NCBI GenBank assembly: GCA_034520885.1
Contig: JAXHNE010000009.1
Span: 130,431 to 194,430, forward strand
Source of the DNA: Candidatus Saccharimonadota bacterium
Lineage (GTDB): Bacteria; Patescibacteriota; Saccharimonadia; Saccharimonadales; JAXHNE01
Reading direction: 5' to 3'
DNA: 64,000 nucleotides
Shown: piece after piece, positions 8,954 to 58,346 of the stretch
How the letters are laid out: each line of letters starts with the position of its first letter
How positions within the stretch are numbered: the stretch's first letter is position 1
Translations under genes and position numbers: made by a program
Notes under the pieces: model-generated
Databases searched by the model: none
The model's input: only the letters and a program-made list of their open reading frames with translations
Told to the model about the DNA's origin: nothing

Positions 8954-9030
8954 CGGGGTGTGGCGCAGTTGGCTAGCGCGGGCGGTTTGGGACCGTCAGG
9001 TCGTAGGTTCGAGTCCTATCACCCCGACCA
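8954..9030 (+). tRNA. tRNA-Pro (anticodon TGG), CCA encoded
   Basis: Manual cloverleaf: acceptor CGGGGTG/CACCCCG, D arm GCGC/GCGC, anticodon arm GGCGG-TTTGGGA-CCGTC, T arm GTAGG-TTCGAGT-CCTAT, discriminator A, CCA. Confidence 0.9.
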
Positions 9031-9209
9031 AATAAAGAGTCCATCGAAAGATGGGCTTTTTATTTGGTTAGATTGGGCGTGAAGGGCTCGGACCGTTAGG
9101 CGAAAACAGCCGGGGGCTGTTTGAGGAGTCCTTTGGAGTCCGCTTACTAAAGCGGACGGCGACTGAGGCATTTGTTGGCTAACAAATGTTGCCCGAAGGA
9201 GAAAACTAG

Positions 9210-9231
9210 TCGAGTCCTATCACCCCGACCA
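9210..9231 (+). repeat. Exact 22-nt duplicate of the tRNA-Pro 3' end (att-like)
   Basis: TCGAGTCCTATCACCCCGACCA at 9210-9231 is identical to 9009-9030 (T loop to CCA). The two copies are separated by a 179-bp hairpin-rich insert. Confidence 0.9.
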
Positions 9232-9520
9232 TCCTCCGTCGCTCCGCTTTTTGCGGAGCTAGGGAGGATTTTTATATCAAGAGCTTGAATTGATAACGAG
9301 ACAACGGAACGCCATTTTTTGAGCGGCTTTTTGGTTTTTATGAAAGCTATGTTATATCCGGTTGAACCGAGTAGAAACAACCGATTACCTCCGATTTACA
9401 CCCTGGATATAACGAATTGAGTAATGCCAAGCATTGCCAAGTAAAACCTTTATGGCTATAATTATCAACGTTAGAAAACTAAACAGATTAGAAAACTAAA
9501 CAGAAAAGTAGGAAACAAAA

Positions 9521-13252: not shown

Positions 13253-13307
13253 GAAAGCAGTCAAGCTAGCTTGAGTATTTTCTGTAAGGGAACGAGAATA
13301 CCTTAGT

Positions 13308-13326
13308 ATTCTCTCCGCCCGCACCA
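13308..13326 (+). repeat. Degenerate (17/19) copy of the tRNA-Gly 3' end
   Basis: ATTCTCTCCGCCCGCACCA compared with ATTCTCGCCACCCGCACCA at 13234-13252. It is preceded by an 8-bp hairpin, GAGAATAC-CTTA-GTATTCTC, and ends 8 nt from the HNH gene stop. Confidence 0.7.
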
Positions 13327-23014: not shown

Positions 23015-23090
23015 GCCCGAGTAGCTCAGTGGATAGAGCGTCTGGCTTCGGACCAGAAAGTCGGGGGTTCGAATCCCTCCTCGGGTACCA
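23015..23090 (+). tRNA. tRNA-Arg (anticodon TCG), CCA encoded
   Basis: Acceptor GCCCGAG/CTCGGGT (G1-U72), D arm GCTC/GAGC, anticodon arm TCTGG-CTTCGGA-CCAGA, T arm GGGGG-TTCGAAT-CCCTC, ACCA. Confidence 0.9.
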
Positions 23091-23250
23091 TATAAAATTA
23101 TCCGGTTTATCGGATGGTTTTATATGGTAAAGGAAGCGAATGAACTGCTTCATTCGCGTGGGATTCGAACAGGCGCAGCTTTGCCGAGCCATTCAGTGAG
23201 GCAGCGAGCCGGGGTCGACAGCGAAAAGCGAAAGCTTTTCGACTGGTGAC

Positions 23251-23274
23251 TCGAAAATCCCTCCTCGGGTACCA
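23251..23274 (+). repeat. Duplicate of the tRNA-Arg(TCG) 3' end (att-like)
   Basis: TCGAAAATCCCTCCTCGGGTACCA. The last 19 nt (23256-23274) are identical to 23072-23090. The copies are separated by about 160 bp of hairpin-rich sequence. Confidence 0.9.
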
Positions 23275-25818: not shown

Positions 25819-25987
25819 TCCTTAAAGTATAGCAATAAAATCTCCGCCACACATAGATGCATACGAAAATATGTCGAACTCAAAGCATTAAAATAAAACT
25901 CAGCTTTAAAGCCGAGTTAAAGCTGAGTTTTACTATAAAACGAAACAGTTTTTTTGAGTGCAGAGTTTTTGCGGGCCGTTTTTACTT

Positions 25988-26132
25988 CACTTCACTAAAA
26001 TTCCGAGCGGCACACTTCAAGTTAATAAAATTGTGGCAAGCCTGGCGGCCTGCCACACGTAGCCTTGGCGAAGTGTGGAGGGCCTCTCCTTCGCTGAAGC
26101 TTCGGTGAGCAGGCCGGTGGGACTTGGTCACA
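25988..26132. repeat. ~145-bp direct repeat, copy 1, flanking the GIY-YIG gene
   Basis: It aligns along its whole length with 26422-26567. The core GCCTGCCACACGTAGCCTTGGCGAAGTGTGGAGGGCCTCTCCTTCGCTGAAGCTTCGGTGA is identical in both copies. Confidence 0.85.
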
Positions 26133-26169
26133 AGTTCCGCCTTTGGCGGATCGTATAACTCACTGTAGT

Positions 26170-26406
26170 TTATATAAGATGTTTGTTGCGGAACGCTTGC
26201 CCCGAGCCCGTTTTAAGGTATTCTTCGAATTCTAAAGCTCTCCTCTTGGAATTAAACGCACAGTAATAAATAAGCTTTATTGGTCTGTAGCCTTTTGTTG
26301 CCAGAACATTACCCTTCTGATGTTTCTCCAGTCGCGCTTTGACATCCTTTGTTGAGCCAGTATAGGTTTCGCCGGTAGATAATCTTAACAGGTAAACATA
26401 GTACAT
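26170..26406 (-). CDS. Small GIY-YIG nuclease-domain protein
   Basis: 78 aa. MYYVYLLRLSTGETYTGSTKDVKARLEKHQKG...E..LK is the GIY-YIG/URI core. Confidence 0.75.
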   Translation of the reverse strand: MYYVYLLRLSTGETYTGSTKDVKARLEKHQKGNVLATKGYRPIKLIYYCAFNSKRRALEFEEYLKTGSGQAFRNKHLI

Positions 26407-26421
26407 GGACTTATTTTAGCC

Positions 26422-26567
26422 CCACTTCACTAAAGTTTCGAGGGGCACACTTCACGTTAATAAAAAGTGTGGCCGGCCTGATGGCCTGCCACACGTAGCC
26501 TTGGCGAAGTGTGGAGGGCCTCTCCTTCGCTGAAGCTTCGGTGAACAGGCCGGTGGAACTTGGTCAC
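26422..26567. repeat. ~145-bp direct repeat, copy 2
   Basis: See copy 1. Divergence is concentrated in the first ~50 nt. Confidence 0.85.
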
Positions 26568-26666
26568 AGTCTCTCGCGACACCATTTTTATGTGCCGTTA
26601 ATTCAAAAATCTAACTAAAAACTAAAATCCTCCATAGCTGACCCTGAAAGGGTCTGCGACGGAGGA

Positions 26667-26683
26667 TGGAGGGCCCAGTGGGA
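26667..26683 (-). repeat. Exact 17-nt duplicate of the tRNA-Lys 3' end (att-like)
   Basis: TGGAGGGCCCAGTGGGA (plus-strand reading) at 26667-26683 is identical to 26836-26852. It lies downstream of the tRNA in tRNA orientation. Confidence 0.9.
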
Positions 26684-26835
26684 ATACGGGGTATATTCCG
26701 CCCGAGCTGCGAGTAAGGCCTTCGGCTTTCCTCGGTCTCGCTTGAATATCGAACCCCGCTCGCAAGCTCGCTTATGTGGGTTCGAGACACAAACACAACC
26801 AATTAAAACACCCCGGCTATGCGGGGTGTTTTAAT

Positions 26836-26912
26836 TGGAGGGCCCAGTGGGACTCGAACCCACGACACCCTGCTTAAGAGGCAGGTGCTCTAACCGGCTG
26901 AGCTATGGGCCC
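26836..26912 (-). tRNA. tRNA-Lys (anticodon CTT), CCA encoded
   Basis: Reverse complement: GGGCCCA TA GCTC AGCCGGTTA GAGC A CCTGC CTCTTAA GCAGG GTGTC GTGGG TTCGAGT CCCAC TGGGCCC T CCA. Confidence 0.9.
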
Positions 26913-27115
26913 GGAAGTAGACTTTCTCATTCGCTTCAGTAAAACTGAAGCCCGTGCGCCCAGCGCACTAACGAAAGCTCACTTCCGGGCGGGCCCCTTC
27001 GCTAGTTTTGGCGCAATAGAAACGCAACAAAGAGAAACTTTAGCAGGTTACCCCTGTTTTTGCAATGCCGGACAATATTTACGGCAAGTGGGTTAATTAC
27101 TGATAAGATACTTGC

Positions 27116-27397
27116 ATGAGTCCCGTTAGAGCCAAAATACACTATGTATACGTGTTAAAAGGTACGAGTAGTGGTAAATTCTATACGGGCTGCACGTCAG
27201 ATTTACGAAAACGCTATAATGAACACCAGAGCGGTCTTAATAAATCCACAAAGAACCGCGGACCATATGAGCTGATATACTATGAAGCCTGCATGGATGC
27301 CAAGGATGCGTTTACGCGAGAGAAATATTTAAAGACAGGGATGGGAAAGCGCTACCTAAAAAATAGACTAAAGCGTTTTCTGGCTCTAACGGGATGA
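27116..27397 (+). CDS. Small GIY-YIG nuclease-domain protein
   Basis: 93 aa. IHYVYVLKGTSSGKFYTGCTSDLRKRYNEHQSG...REKYLK. Its stop overlaps the folD ATG (ATGA at 27394). Confidence 0.75.
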   Translation: MSPVRAKIHYVYVLKGTSSGKFYTGCTSDLRKRYNEHQSGLNKSTKNRGPYELIYYEACMDAKDAFTREKYLKTGMGKRYLKNRLKRFLALTG

Positions 27398-43945: not shown

Positions 43946-44020
43946 GGTCCCATCGTCTAATGGTTAGGACATCAGGTTTTCATCCTGAAAATAGGGGTTC
44001 GATTCCCCTTGGGATCACCA
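43946..44020 (+). tRNA. tRNA-Glu (anticodon TTC), CCA encoded
   Basis: Acceptor GGTCCCA/TGGGATC, anticodon arm TCAGG-TTTTCAT-CCTGA, T arm AGGGG-TTCGATT-CCCCT, ACCA. Confidence 0.9.
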
Positions 44021-44027
44021 CGTTAAG

Positions 44028-44050
44028 CACCCACGTTATGTGGGTGTTTT
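44028..44050 (+). terminator. Terminator after tRNA-Glu
   Basis: CACCCAC-GTTAT-GTGGGTG followed by TTTT. Confidence 0.6.
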
Positions 44051-44146
44051 GCGTGGTGACGGACCCCAAGAGCAAGCCAAATGTTTGACCCCCACCCCCA
44101 CCCTAGACTAAAATCATAAGCAGTAAATAGGGATCAAAAACGAAAA

Positions 44147-57537: not shown

Positions 57538-57942
57538 GGGGCTGACTTTAAGCTCGACGTTGGACGTTAACAAGTTAGATCAGCAGGCCGCTTACTCAGC
57601 GTTATAGGGTAACTCAAACTAGATGCAAATTTCGTATCTAAAGCAAAAGCCGGCTTCCAGAATGCTGCTTACGCACTTTTTGGTCAACCAGCTGAAGCTA
57701 CAGCAGTAGCTTAACAGCATACTGCCGCTACGATTTTGACTCCTGATAGAAATCCGTAGTGCCATATTTTTCAGGGTGCCGATTCGTGAGCGGTTCATAA
57801 CGAATCATAAGACTAATGAACCACCTCGTTCGCTATTTTGATTGTTTTAACGCGAAACGAGTACACCCAAACAATCTAAGCCTGTAGGACAGACTAACTT
57901 ATAACCCTTCGGACGCGGGTGCGATTCCCGCCAGCTCCACCA
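57538..57942 (+). ncRNA. ssrA: tmRNA (SsrA)
   Basis: The 5' end is GGGGCTGACTTTAAGCTCGACG and the 3' end is GGACGCGGGTGCGATTCCCGCCAGCTCCACCA (tRNA-Ala-like, G3-U70). A candidate tag frame from GCA 57643 reads AKAGFQNAAYALFGQPAEATAVA, ending at the TAA stop at 57712-57714. Confidence 0.9.
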
Positions 57943-58346
57943 GACTTCGCGCAAGGCTTCGTCTGGCAAGCCATTTCGTAAAACGTTACTTAGAAAACGG
58001 CTTATTTTATAGTATTAGGGACTCGTGCCTGCCAGCTCCACCAGACTTCGCGCAAGGCTTCGTCTGGCAAGCCATTTCGTAAAACGTTACTTAGAAAACG
58101 GCTTATTTTATAGTATTAGGGACTCGTGCCTGCCAGCTCCACCAGACTTCGCGCAAGGCTTCGTCTGGCAAGCCATTTCGTAAAACGTTCCTTAGAAAAC
58201 GGCTTATTTTATAGTATTAGGGACTCGTGCCCGCCAGCTCCACCAGACTTCGCGCAAGGCTTCGTCTGGCAAGCCATTTCGTAAAACGTTACTTAGAAAA
58301 CGGCTTATTTTATAGTATTAGGGACTCGTGCCTGCCAGCTCCACCA
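57943..58346 (+). repeat. Four tandem 101-bp units, each ending in the ssrA 3' terminus
   Basis: Unit ends fall at 58043, 58144, 58245 and 58346. Each unit ends in (C/T)GCCAGCTCCACCA. The units are nearly identical, with single substitutions in unit 3. Confidence 0.92.

Follow-up and report, generated by a model that had tools for sequence, protein, structure and literature searches.

A 64,000-nucleotide (nt) stretch of Candidatus Saccharimonadota DNA (contig JAXHNE010000009.1, positions 130,431 to 194,430), referred to over its whole length as the window, carries two direct repeats of ~145–150 nt downstream of a lysine transfer RNA (tRNA) gene, with a small GIY-YIG nuclease gene between them. 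Each repeat is a junction in which a decayed tRNA-Lys 3′ half is joined to the left end of a conserved cassette. The cassette consists of a structured trailer and one stand-alone GIY-YIG gene of 78–81 amino acids (aa), and it always starts with the nucleotide that immediately follows the CCA of a tRNA, a transfer-messenger RNA (tmRNA), or a tRNA remnant. It is apparently undescribed and probably mobile; that it moves, and what its nuclease does, we infer from sequence. With moderate confidence, it is interpreted here as a cassette that targets tRNA and tmRNA 3′ ends without an integrase of its own and that was expanded in the window by serial or tandem insertion.

Self-comparison of the 64-kb window placed the first repeat copy at 25979/25988-26132 and the second at 26414/26423-26568. 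The copies are ~92% identical over 146 nt, with one indel, and are spaced 435–436 nt apart; a 47-nt core is identical between them, where none was expected from 100 shuffles. They bracket an open reading frame (ORF) for a 78-aa GIY-YIG protein (26170-26406, minus strand), which lies on the same strand as tRNA-Lys(CTT). The original prediction, made from the letters of the sequence, had described a cassette-like unit with a GIY-YIG gene between the repeats, and this is borne out by the self-comparison, the ORF, and its Pfam match. It had also named repeats at many non-tRNA sites, with no GIY-YIG association, as an outcome that would speak against a link to tRNA. In the window, the full ~150-nt repeat occurs only twice, at the tRNA-Lys locus, and its hairpin core occurs four further times, directly 3′ of the tmRNA gene. 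The hairpin type concerned (M1, see below) is likewise confined to these six places, namely the two tRNA-Lys-locus copies and four tmRNA units. Read on the tRNA strand, the repeat is composed of two halves: half A, a tRNA-Lys 3′ half that ends in CCA, and half B, a structured trailer, which begins at the next base.

Half B reads CACTTCGCCAAGGCTACGTGTGGCAGGCC..., later GAAGTGTG, followed by the hairpin GCCCCTCGAAAC-TTTA-GTGAAGTGGGGC and then the ATG of the GIY-YIG gene. In the window, CCACAC pairs with GTGTGG in the M1 hairpin, CACACTTC pairs with GAAGTGTG in a long-range helix (P1), and a central hairpin is formed by GTGTGGCAGGCC.../...GGCCACAC. The central hairpin is followed by a T-run, and that of copy 1 was flagged as terminator-like by a scanner; the predicted RNA fold of the window trailer has z = −4.3. 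An alignment of 28 trailers (A1), with a structured region of 100–170 nt, gave the M1 consensus CCA-x-ACTTCGC-YAAR-GCTTCGT-x'-TGGCA, in which CCA-x-AC...GT-x'-TGG forms the local hairpin. Downstream of M1 lie a variable central hairpin that begins (G/A)GCCA, the strand M3 (GCGAAGT-x'-TG), which pairs with CA-x-ACTTCGC to form P1, and a last hairpin, M4. The latter has a covarying outer stem (GCCCT/AGGGC, GCCACCC/GGGTGGC, GCCCC/GGGGC, or GTCCTCC/GGAGGGC) around the conserved internal-loop strands CGTAGC and GCGAAGT (GUA/GAA), with a short apical hairpin. In A1, 88–89% of cells were paired, against ~30–45% in slid controls; double-sided changes were seen in seven pairs, and the covariation score was reached in none of 500 shuffles.

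P1, the central hairpin, and M4 all form in the predicted trailer folds, for which z ranges from −2.8 to −5.5, and G-U pairs are present on the sense strand. M1 and P1 compete for one 5′ strand, and the window M1 competes with the central hairpin as well; the mutually exclusive hairpins that had been proposed for the repeat are thus present, and they are conserved across phyla with compensatory changes. Such changes were also found in variant trailers (CAACCTTC with GAAGGTTG, and CACCCTTC with GAAGGGTG) from loci that were reached through the protein (see below), and they support P1 independently of any search pattern. Ahead of the ATG, M4 ends in a T-run in the loci L002, L005, and L010, and it sequesters a GGAGG just 5′ of the ATG in L133 and L134, while Saccharibacteria carry a −10-like TAnAAT a few bases upstream of the ATG. 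Rfam 15, including its T-box, group I intron, and ribozyme models, gave no match to the trailer even with the E threshold relaxed to 10 for the window and to 1 for eight related loci; the significant matches were to the tRNA model only, with tmRNA and group II intron matches also in related loci. Group I introns in the T-loop of tRNA or tmRNA have been described for Patescibacteria (PMC13011429). This candidate was rejected for the present locus, where no intron model matched and where the first copy of the tRNA is uninterrupted, with a terminator behind it.

A covariance model (R1) was built from A1 with P1 and M4; its E-values are rough, and both tRNA-Lys-locus copies of the window are in its training alignment. 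Of these training sequences, the copy at 26408-26514 scored 90.7 bits with all modules, and the copy at 25973-26078 scored 70.6 bits without the closing strand of M4. The tmRNA units reached 30–32 bits (E ~1e-6), and R1 found no match in the window beyond the tRNA-Lys and tmRNA loci. Held-out loci scored 24–81 bits, all at the expected position (L141, 72.7; L133, 56.9; L075, 81), and no match was obtained at empty tRNA-Lys loci. Many loci first classed as hairpin-only proved with R1 to be full-length trailers.

Half A reads GTGACCAAGTYCCACCGGCC, a 27-nt hairpin, and GGCCCTCCA. The suggestion that the TGGAGGGCC...CCGGTGGRACTTGGTCAC part of the repeat is a tRNA-Lys 3′ end interrupted by a hairpin was examined by local alignment to the 3′ part of tRNA-Lys, with the GGCC-flanked mini-hairpin removed, against 2000 shuffles. 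The upstream half A scored 15.6, a value attained by no shuffle (0/2000), and its alignment extends back into the variable loop (TAAAAATGGTGTCG versus TAAGCAGGGTGTCG); the downstream half A′ scored 13.0, with 9/2000 shuffles as high. With the mini-hairpin retained the test was weaker (24/2000 shuffles as high for the upstream half, 284/2000 for the downstream). The resemblance to tRNA-Lys, which might have been no better than chance, therefore exceeds chance for both copies once the hairpin is removed. The tRNA-derived portion is nevertheless only half of the repeat, the other half being the conserved left end of the cassette.

Halves A and A′ have a GTGACC arm and the mini-hairpin in common. 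They are therefore not separate footprints: one was copied from the other, or both from a sequence carried by the element. The arm GGAAC(G/T)TGACC is common to L126, L002, and the A′ of the window; the T-arms of the local tRNAs differ, and the core 3′ of the arm matches the local tRNA in each case. The interrupting hairpin belongs to a recurrent mini-hairpin family, which is also seen in L017 (CTCTCCGAAGCTTTAGCGAAGGAGAG) and in the viral contig L149, downstream of a GIY-YIG gene. L017, L028, L051, and L058 have mini-hairpins of the M4 type within M1 or M4, and the 27-nt interruption of half A is of this type as well. As a separate observation, mini-hairpins of the form YYYYYY-GAAGC-TTNA-GCGAAG-RRRRRR are found in several phyla within M1 and M4, either in a loop or in a stem, at times doubly nested (L058:1977-2100 and 2668-2844; L028:6079-6427; L017:4519-5120; L051), and act like a separate small repeat family.

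The locus as a whole holds four tRNA-Lys 3′ ends in series, as had been predicted, at tRNA-strand positions 26836, 26667, 26512, and 26076; all features of the series lie on the minus strand and are given here in the order of the tRNA strand. It opens with a functional tRNA-Lys(CTT) that encodes its CCA (26836..26912; ARAGORN; Rfam tRNA model, 72.5 bits), and this gene is the attachment point for the entire series. The ORF-less insert E1 (26684..26835) follows and begins with a terminator hairpin (26799-26838), the stem of which takes in the tRNA CCA (CCA...TGG); the window has analogous inserts 3′ of tRNA-Pro and tRNA-Arg(tcg), and L125 and L126 have such inserts too. The second 3′ end is an exact 17-nt copy of the tRNA-Lys 3′ end, TCCCACTGGGCCCTCCA (26667..26683), 169 nt downstream of tRNA-Lys. 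It is followed by a terminator-like module, TCCTCCGTCGC-hairpin-GCTATGGAGGATTTT (26624..26666), which recurs 3′ of a distal tRNA-Pro 3′-end copy, and by ~30 nt of AT-rich DNA.

The third 3′ end is the upstream half A (26512..26590), a decayed tRNA-Lys 3′ half that ends at 26512. It is made up of a variable-loop remnant (26577-26590), the arm GTGACCAAGT (26558-26567), which L126 and L002 also have, and GGCC[mini-hairpin]GGCCCTCCA, with the nested mini-hairpin CTGTTCACCGAAGCTTCAGCGAAGGAGAGG (26519..26548) flanked by GGCC on either side. Half B, the complete trailer (26407..26511), comprises the M1 hairpin including the CCA (26487-26514), the central terminator-like hairpin with its T-run (26467-26494), M3 (GAAGTGTG, 26446-26453), and the M4 hairpin (26419-26446). 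A promoter-like site (26441 to 26413) stands immediately 5′ of the ATG of the GIY-YIG gene (26170..26406), which encodes a stand-alone UPF0213/Slx1-like protein of 78 aa with intact catalytic residues. Half A′ (26076..26132), a downstream pseudo-tRNA-Lys 3′ end with its mini-hairpin at 26083-26112 and the arm GGCGGAACTTGTGACC before it, supplies the fourth 3′ end. The series closes with half B′ (25979..26075), in which M1, the central terminator-like hairpin (26032-26057), and M3 (26011-26018) are followed by only the 5′ part of M4 (25988-26011); the downstream repeat is thus a second trailer truncated within its last hairpin. Beyond it lies the upstream region of a Na+/Ca2+ exchanger gene.

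Simpler states of this locus were found in relatives. In L002/L003 (77% identity, syntenic with FolD) and L005/L006 (74%), a real tRNA-Lys(CTT) is followed at once by half B and then by the GIY-YIG gene, on the same strand. In L002 the GIY-YIG stop codon is followed by CTCGTGGAACGTGACCGTGCCCCCCTGGCCTTCCA, a half A homologue without the mini-hairpin, so that the simple state is tRNA-CCA / trailer / GIY-YIG / pseudo-3′-end; this order, with tRNA-Lys, is the ancestral state that the relatives have retained. When metagenome contigs were scanned for related tRNA-Lys(CTT) genes, four to five loci proved to be empty, with a plain terminator or ordinary DNA after the CCA (L127, L128, L130–L132). L126 and L129 carry a 198-nt ORF-less insert that ends in GGAACGTGACCAAGTCTCAC-TGGGCCCTCCA and has a 20-nt copy of the tRNA end. 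The order of the window recurs in a different genome, L125, with tRNA-Lys(TTT), an ORF-less insert, a 20-nt 3′-end copy, and the trailer. The simple states, the empty sites, the inserts of L126 and L129, and the order in L125 all support the proposal that elements were inserted serially at this tRNA, one of them carrying the GIY-YIG gene.

The second attachment point of the trailer module in the window is the tmRNA gene (57538..57942, plus strand). It is followed on the same strand by 4.1 tandem copies of a 101-nt unit without an ORF (57930..58346), the copies being 98% alike. Each unit contains an M1 hairpin right after the CCA, part of the trailer, and a pseudo-tmRNA 3′ end from which the T-loop is deleted; the tmRNA itself ends in ...GCCAGCTCCACCA, after which GACTTCGCGCAAGGCTTCGTCTGGCAAGCC... 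begins. In the window self-comparison the start of half B resembled this unit, which means that one hairpin module follows the CCA of two unrelated RNA genes. At the tRNA-Lys and tmRNA sites the base after the CCA is C or G, and the stem base opposite it is the complementary G or C. The array also has TTATTTTATAG in common with the trailer of a tmRNA-linked GIY-YIG gene in the Saccharibacteria genome L010.

Other tRNA genes of the window carry inserts of a different kind. ORF-less inserts at 9031-9231, 13253-13326, and 23091-23274 (all plus strand) lie 3′ of tRNA-Pro, tRNA-Gly, and tRNA-Arg(tcg), respectively, and each is bounded by a copy of its own tRNA 3′ end (22 nt exact for Pro, ~17 nt with 2 mismatches for Gly, and 19 nt exact for Arg). 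The possibility that the ORF-less inserts at tRNA-Pro, tRNA-Arg, tRNA-Gly, and tRNA-Lys are one element, or are the trailer, was rejected, as the comparison gave only a 14-nt match. A module consisting of TCCTCCGTCGC, a variable hairpin, and GCTA(G/T)GGAGGATTTT lies after the distal 3′-end copies of tRNA-Lys (26624-26666, minus strand) and tRNA-Pro (9232-9275, plus strand); its inner hairpin differs in sequence between the two loci, with pairing retained. In this genome and its relatives, hairpins that follow a tRNA usually take the tRNA CCA into their stem and close with TGG (9028-9068, 23088-23128, 26799-26838, and 44018-44056; also L125–L128 and L132), including at sites without an insertion. 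This suggests that tRNA precursors throughout the lineage have their CCA end paired with the trailer.

The 78-aa protein of the window matches Pfam GIY-YIG (PF01541) over residues 1–69 with 57.6 bits (cut-off 22.6) and PDB 1zg2 (BH0048) over residues 2–65 with an E value of 7e-9. Residues Y5, Y15, G17, R25, H29, E61, and N74 are invariant in 26 homologues, and 157 homologues of the same length were found across Patescibacteria and beyond. The protein is a bare catalytic domain of the UPF0213/Slx1-like branch, with the minimal domain, size, and motifs of UPF0213/Slx1-like proteins such as BH0048. It differs from that family at large in the association of the cassette subfamily with tRNA/tmRNA 3′ ends and with the trailer, a genomic rule for which no report was found. 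An exact look-up of the window protein gave no record, and an identical protein in the homologue set (P0001) is assigned by NCBI to Candidatus Saccharibacteria. A survey of the superfamily lists minimal stand-alone GIY-YIG proteins of unknown function and one fusion to the tRNA methyltransferase TrmH (Dunin-Horkawicz 2006, PMC1564403).

A tree of 17 trailer-linked proteins resolved into two clades, one of candidate phyla radiation (CPR) bacteria and one of TM6 and Proteobacteria. The TM6/Proteobacteria clade also takes in a tmRNA-linked copy from Saccharibacteria, which indicates that the gene has passed from one phylum to another. In one WWE3 lineage, two tRNA-Ser genes whose 3′ halves are identical each have a paralogous copy; the similarity of the two copies spans the region from the T-arm to the stop codon and ends there, so that in this lineage the unit has its right boundary where the ORF ends. 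In the viral collection searched, a single contig (L149) encoded a relative, and phages as the main carriers were accordingly rejected for that collection.

The distribution of the trailer was examined by a motif scan of one genome per species (185,579 species) with the pattern ACTTCGC-N4-6-GCT-N-CGT-N-TGGCA, in which only the x position of M1 is free. The figures that follow hold among the matches listed (at least 119 stretches and at least 123 occurrences), and most of the sequences compared come from metagenome-assembled genomes (MAGs). A CCA stood at exactly −4 to −2 in 96 of the 123 matches, where chance would give 1 in 64; the 26 matches without CCA resemble the chance background. In 61 cases the match adjoined a tRNA or tmRNA called by ARAGORN, representing at least 28 isoacceptors plus tmRNA and six or more phyla. 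Among the taxa are Saccharibacteria, Levyibacteriota, Dependentiae/Babeliales, Alpha- and Gammaproteobacteria, Planctomycetota, Armatimonadota, and Victivallis. The x/x' pair was Watson–Crick in 91 of the 96 CCA matches (T-A 56, C-G 27, G-C 8). The P1 partner GAAGT-x'-TG, the complement of CA-x-ACTTC, was found within 300 nt in 24 of the 96, with the other three variants together accounting for 2. Behind 12 of the 96 lay a GIY-YIG gene of the cassette subfamily, on the same strand and starting 40–170 nt further on.

As observations apart from these, uncultured Alphaproteobacteria (Enterousia and relatives; L011, L029, L031, L038, L043, L053, L077, L083, L084, and L088) carry an M1-type hairpin that is preceded by AAAAAAGCCA and not by a tRNA. 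Most loci of this group have a conserved CTAAAATTTCTTAAACTCACTGCGTTCGTTAACG after the hairpin, which on the opposite strand would look like a terminator. The Victivallis and Babeliales copies were also compared for co-conversion of their tRNA-Asp 3′ halves; the sequences differ and lend it no support.

Protein-first sampling, in which the genomic sites of more distant homologues were looked up, is free of motif bias. The gene lay directly downstream of an RNA gene, with a trailer of the same build between them, in P0024 (Levybacteria; tRNA-Trp), P0054 and P0071 (both WWE3; tRNA-Ser(gga) and tRNA-Ser(gct), respectively), P0112 (a complete Roizmanbacteria genome; tmRNA), and P0091 (tRNA-Ser(gga)). 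P0015 was found behind a tRNA remnant, and P0002 and P0007 behind a tRNA or tmRNA with trailer, so that the partners overall are Lys, Trp, Ser-gga, Ser-gct, and tmRNA. The rule that the gene follows a tRNA, a tmRNA, or a remnant, together with the trailer, was kept in all seven sampled lineages (7/7) in addition to the window locus. Decayed and trailer-only copies exist, and tandem arrays occur at the window tmRNA and in L008, L067, and L080. The last of these, from Dependentiae, is an independent copy of the window architecture, in which tRNA-Arg(cct)-CCA is followed by the trailer, an exact 33-nt copy of the tRNA 3′ half with CCA, and a degenerate M1.

Taken together, these data are best read as a selfish, horizontally moving unit aimed at the 3′ ends of tRNA and tmRNA genes; the signs of mobility are the empty orthologous tRNA-Lys sites, the WWE3 paralogues at two tRNA-Ser genes, the incongruent protein tree, and the occurrence of decayed copies, trailer-only copies, and tandem arrays. 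Such a cassette would ride on transcription of the tRNA. Its trailer may hold the CCA paired, like native trailers in these genomes, and in this way spare tRNA maturation, and the alternative pairings, of M1 against the central terminator-like hairpin or P1, could gate read-through into the nuclease gene or its translation. For the window, an old L002-like arrangement of tRNA-Lys and cassette would first have been turned into A / B-GIY-A′ / B′ when its junction was duplicated. The duplication would have come about through unequal recombination, or through a tandem or serial insertion that was later truncated. ORF-less elements would later have arrived next to the functional tRNA and displaced the older 3′ ends downstream. 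Most speculatively, the GIY-YIG nuclease might cut unoccupied tRNA 3′ regions and so drive its own spread, with repair copying the cassette through homology to the tRNA 3′ end on one side and to the element-borne pseudo-3′-end on the other. Cutting and repair of this kind would explain both the direct repeats and the tandem arrays.

Free-standing GIY-YIG homing genes of the phage T4 Seg type are among the closest known systems. One of them, SegB, is located within the tRNA gene cluster of T4, which is also where its product cuts (PMC2330249). The cassette resembles Seg-type genes in having a GIY-YIG gene beside tRNA genes, a patchy distribution, signs of horizontal spread, and decay after fixation. 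It differs from them in its conserved structured trailer, in the duplicated target half present in some lineages, and in its protein, which is a bare catalytic domain of the Slx1/UPF0213 branch, whereas Seg and I-TevI enzymes are of ~200–250 aa with a separate DNA-binding domain.

Several points weigh against this interpretation. The 78-aa protein had no Pfam or NCBIfam match other than GIY-YIG and has no separate DNA-binding domain, unlike proven GIY-YIG homing enzymes. The scan figures, which hold among the matches listed, are motif-ascertained, with all stem positions other than x fixed by the pattern, and R1 combines rough E-values with window copies among its training sequences. An automatic search (3 kb, ≤2 mismatches) found a distal tRNA 3′-end copy in only 1 of the 61 listed loci that adjoin a tRNA or tmRNA; such copies are present in the window, L002, L125, L126, and L080, the last being the clean case. 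Finally, a gene-less trailer sits at the same tRNA-Gly(tcc) in at least eight genomes of one alphaproteobacterial clade, which shows that stable inheritance is possible and that the trailer may have a host function.

It is conceivable, though we put this forward only tentatively, that the cassette represents a new class of minimal mobile element: a structured module of 0.1–0.17 kb and a bare 78-aa Slx1-like nuclease, placed exactly after the CCA of a tRNA or tmRNA. The trailer would then have a dual role through UGG:CCA pairing, insulating or processing the tRNA transcript and specifying the target or substrate of the nuclease, and the gene-less trailers and nested mini-hairpins would be non-autonomous forms, comparable to REP sequences with their RAYT but served by another enzyme. 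Hosts of such a class would include CPR bacteria, Dependentiae, Proteobacteria, and other phyla. Among known systems, REP/BIME-RAYT elements, the ends of IS200/IS605, and integron attC sites similarly combine short conserved covarying hairpins with one small gene, and they likewise show frequent gene-less copies, nesting, tandem arrays, and strand-specific structure. The cassette is distinguished from them by the lack of an HUH transposase or integron integrase, by a target that is a CCA end, and by an orientation that is always that of the tRNA. Features of insertion sequences or of miniature inverted-repeat transposable elements were also looked for: there are no terminal inverted repeats at the unit ends, and the duplicated tRNA segments vary from 13 to ~35 nt.

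A rather unlikely alternative is a set of miniature integrative elements that depend for their movement on a site-specific recombinase of the tyrosine type encoded elsewhere, with the A/B junction as attP and the GIY-YIG gene as cargo only. The tRNA 3′-end copies run from the T-loop or variable loop to the CCA, with an element-borne arm and a core that matches the local tRNA, and serial or tandem arrays and ORF-less versions occur; integration at the 3′ end would give both the repeats and the arrays. Copies of this kind are said, in an account credited to Williams and the year 2002, to be the classic signature of islands that target tRNA and tmRNA genes. Islands and prophages with tyrosine integrases share with the cassette the tRNA/tmRNA 3′-end site, the gene kept intact, serial or tandem stacking, and, in some lineages of the cassette, direct repeats of the 3′ part of the tRNA that start in the T-loop or variable loop, end with the CCA, and combine an arm carried by the element with a local core. 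The cassette departs from them in having no integrase, in its size of 0.1–0.45 kb instead of kilobases, in a left end that is a fixed conserved hairpin right after the CCA, in a sole gene that encodes a 78-aa nuclease, and in the absence of a distal repeat from most lineages. GIY-YIG is the only ORF in the 436-nt unit and the 101-nt tmRNA units contain none, so that no integrase lies within the element; nor was one seen among the listed top Pfam families of the 59 window ORFs. Synapsis by a recombinase would moreover have little room in units of only 101–436 nt, passive cargo would not be expected to show the strict linkage between one GIY-YIG subfamily and the trailer that was seen in all contexts sampled, and most loci are without a distal repeat.

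That nothing here moves is also improbable. On such an account, the trailer would be a cis-acting RNA of the host, concerned with tRNA 3′-processing, termination, or attenuation, the GIY-YIG protein would have a host function tied to tRNA or tmRNA, and the repeats in the window would have arisen by local duplication in tandem, through slippage or unequal crossing-over at hairpin-rich DNA. This agrees with the covariation and the sense-strand G-U pairs, with the M4 T-run (L002, L005, and L010) or hidden GGAGG (L133 and L134) before the ATG, with the CCA pairing of native tRNA trailers in these genomes, and with the vertical inheritance of M1 at tRNA-Gly(tcc) in one clade. The strong conservation of protein length and catalytic residues and the published GIY-YIG fusion to TrmH (PMC1564403) fit it as well. 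Attenuators and T-box leaders resemble the trailer in their mutually exclusive helices, which include a terminator-like hairpin, and in the pairing of UGG with a tRNA CCA end; unlike a T-box, the trailer pairs in cis with the tRNA transcribed just upstream, through the CCA and the following bases and not the discriminator, and has no specifier loop, T-box sequence, or Rfam match. A purely host RNA is harder to reconcile with tRNA partners that differ between lineages, empty orthologous sites in relatives, a protein tree incongruent with taxonomy, pseudogenised and scrambled copies with hairpins nested in hairpins, and the four lineages in which tRNA 3′-end copies lie beside the unit.

That the repeats are an artefact of assembly or arose by chance is highly improbable, for although the source is a MAG and an independent assembly (L001) breaks ~75 nt from tRNA-Lys, the copies differ at ~8% of positions and by an indel, their flanks differ, and the same architecture occurs in independent assemblies of other organisms (L002/L003, L005/L006, L080, and L125).

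The accounts based on homing, on a recombinase acting in trans, and on a host RNA are not fully mutually exclusive. Under all readings, the trailer is most likely an RNA-level device, because the trailers native to tRNA genes in these genomes are likewise paired with the CCA.

No description of the unit, of its core sequence, or of a link between small GIY-YIG proteins and tRNA 3′ ends was found in the literature, the coverage of which was incomplete, so that an earlier mention is possible. The work found on GIY-YIG proteins with tRNA, tmRNA, or CPR bacteria was limited to phage Seg enzymes, intron endonucleases of organelles and of rRNA and tRNA genes, and general surveys. Stand-alone GIY-YIG proteins are among the commonest uncharacterised small proteins of bacteria, notably in CPR genomes, and one subfamily of them now has a testable context, on the 3′ side of tRNA and tmRNA genes behind a folded trailer that pairs with the CCA. 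If the cassette is mobile, it would be among the smallest self-contained elements known and would account for the strings of tRNA-end fragments, and for the breaks in metagenome assemblies, beside tRNA genes in reduced genomes. If the trailer is instead a host RNA signal, it would bear on tRNA 3′-end maturation in lineages without the usual exonucleases. Either way, the trailer is a widespread structured element that is absent from Rfam 15.

The 5′ side of tRNA-Lys in the window has features of its own. A second GIY-YIG gene (27116-27397, plus strand, 93 aa), with weak similarity to T5orf172 and group I intron endonucleases, is flanked at its two ends by inverted repeats of 23 nt (27121-27143 and 27372-27394). 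The stop codon of this gene overlaps the start of FolD, and the gene is missing from the syntenic relative L002. A long hairpin (26909-26990, plus strand), with 18-nt arms that are 83% complementary, adjoins the tRNA-Lys 5′ end and begins in the first bases of the tRNA (GCCCGGAAGT...ACTTCCGGGC). In L125 (4385-4804), a GIY-YIG gene of ~90 aa lies between a 13-nt copy of the tRNA-Lys(TTT) 5′ end and the intact tRNA, a layout that is the mirror image of the 3′-end arrangement.

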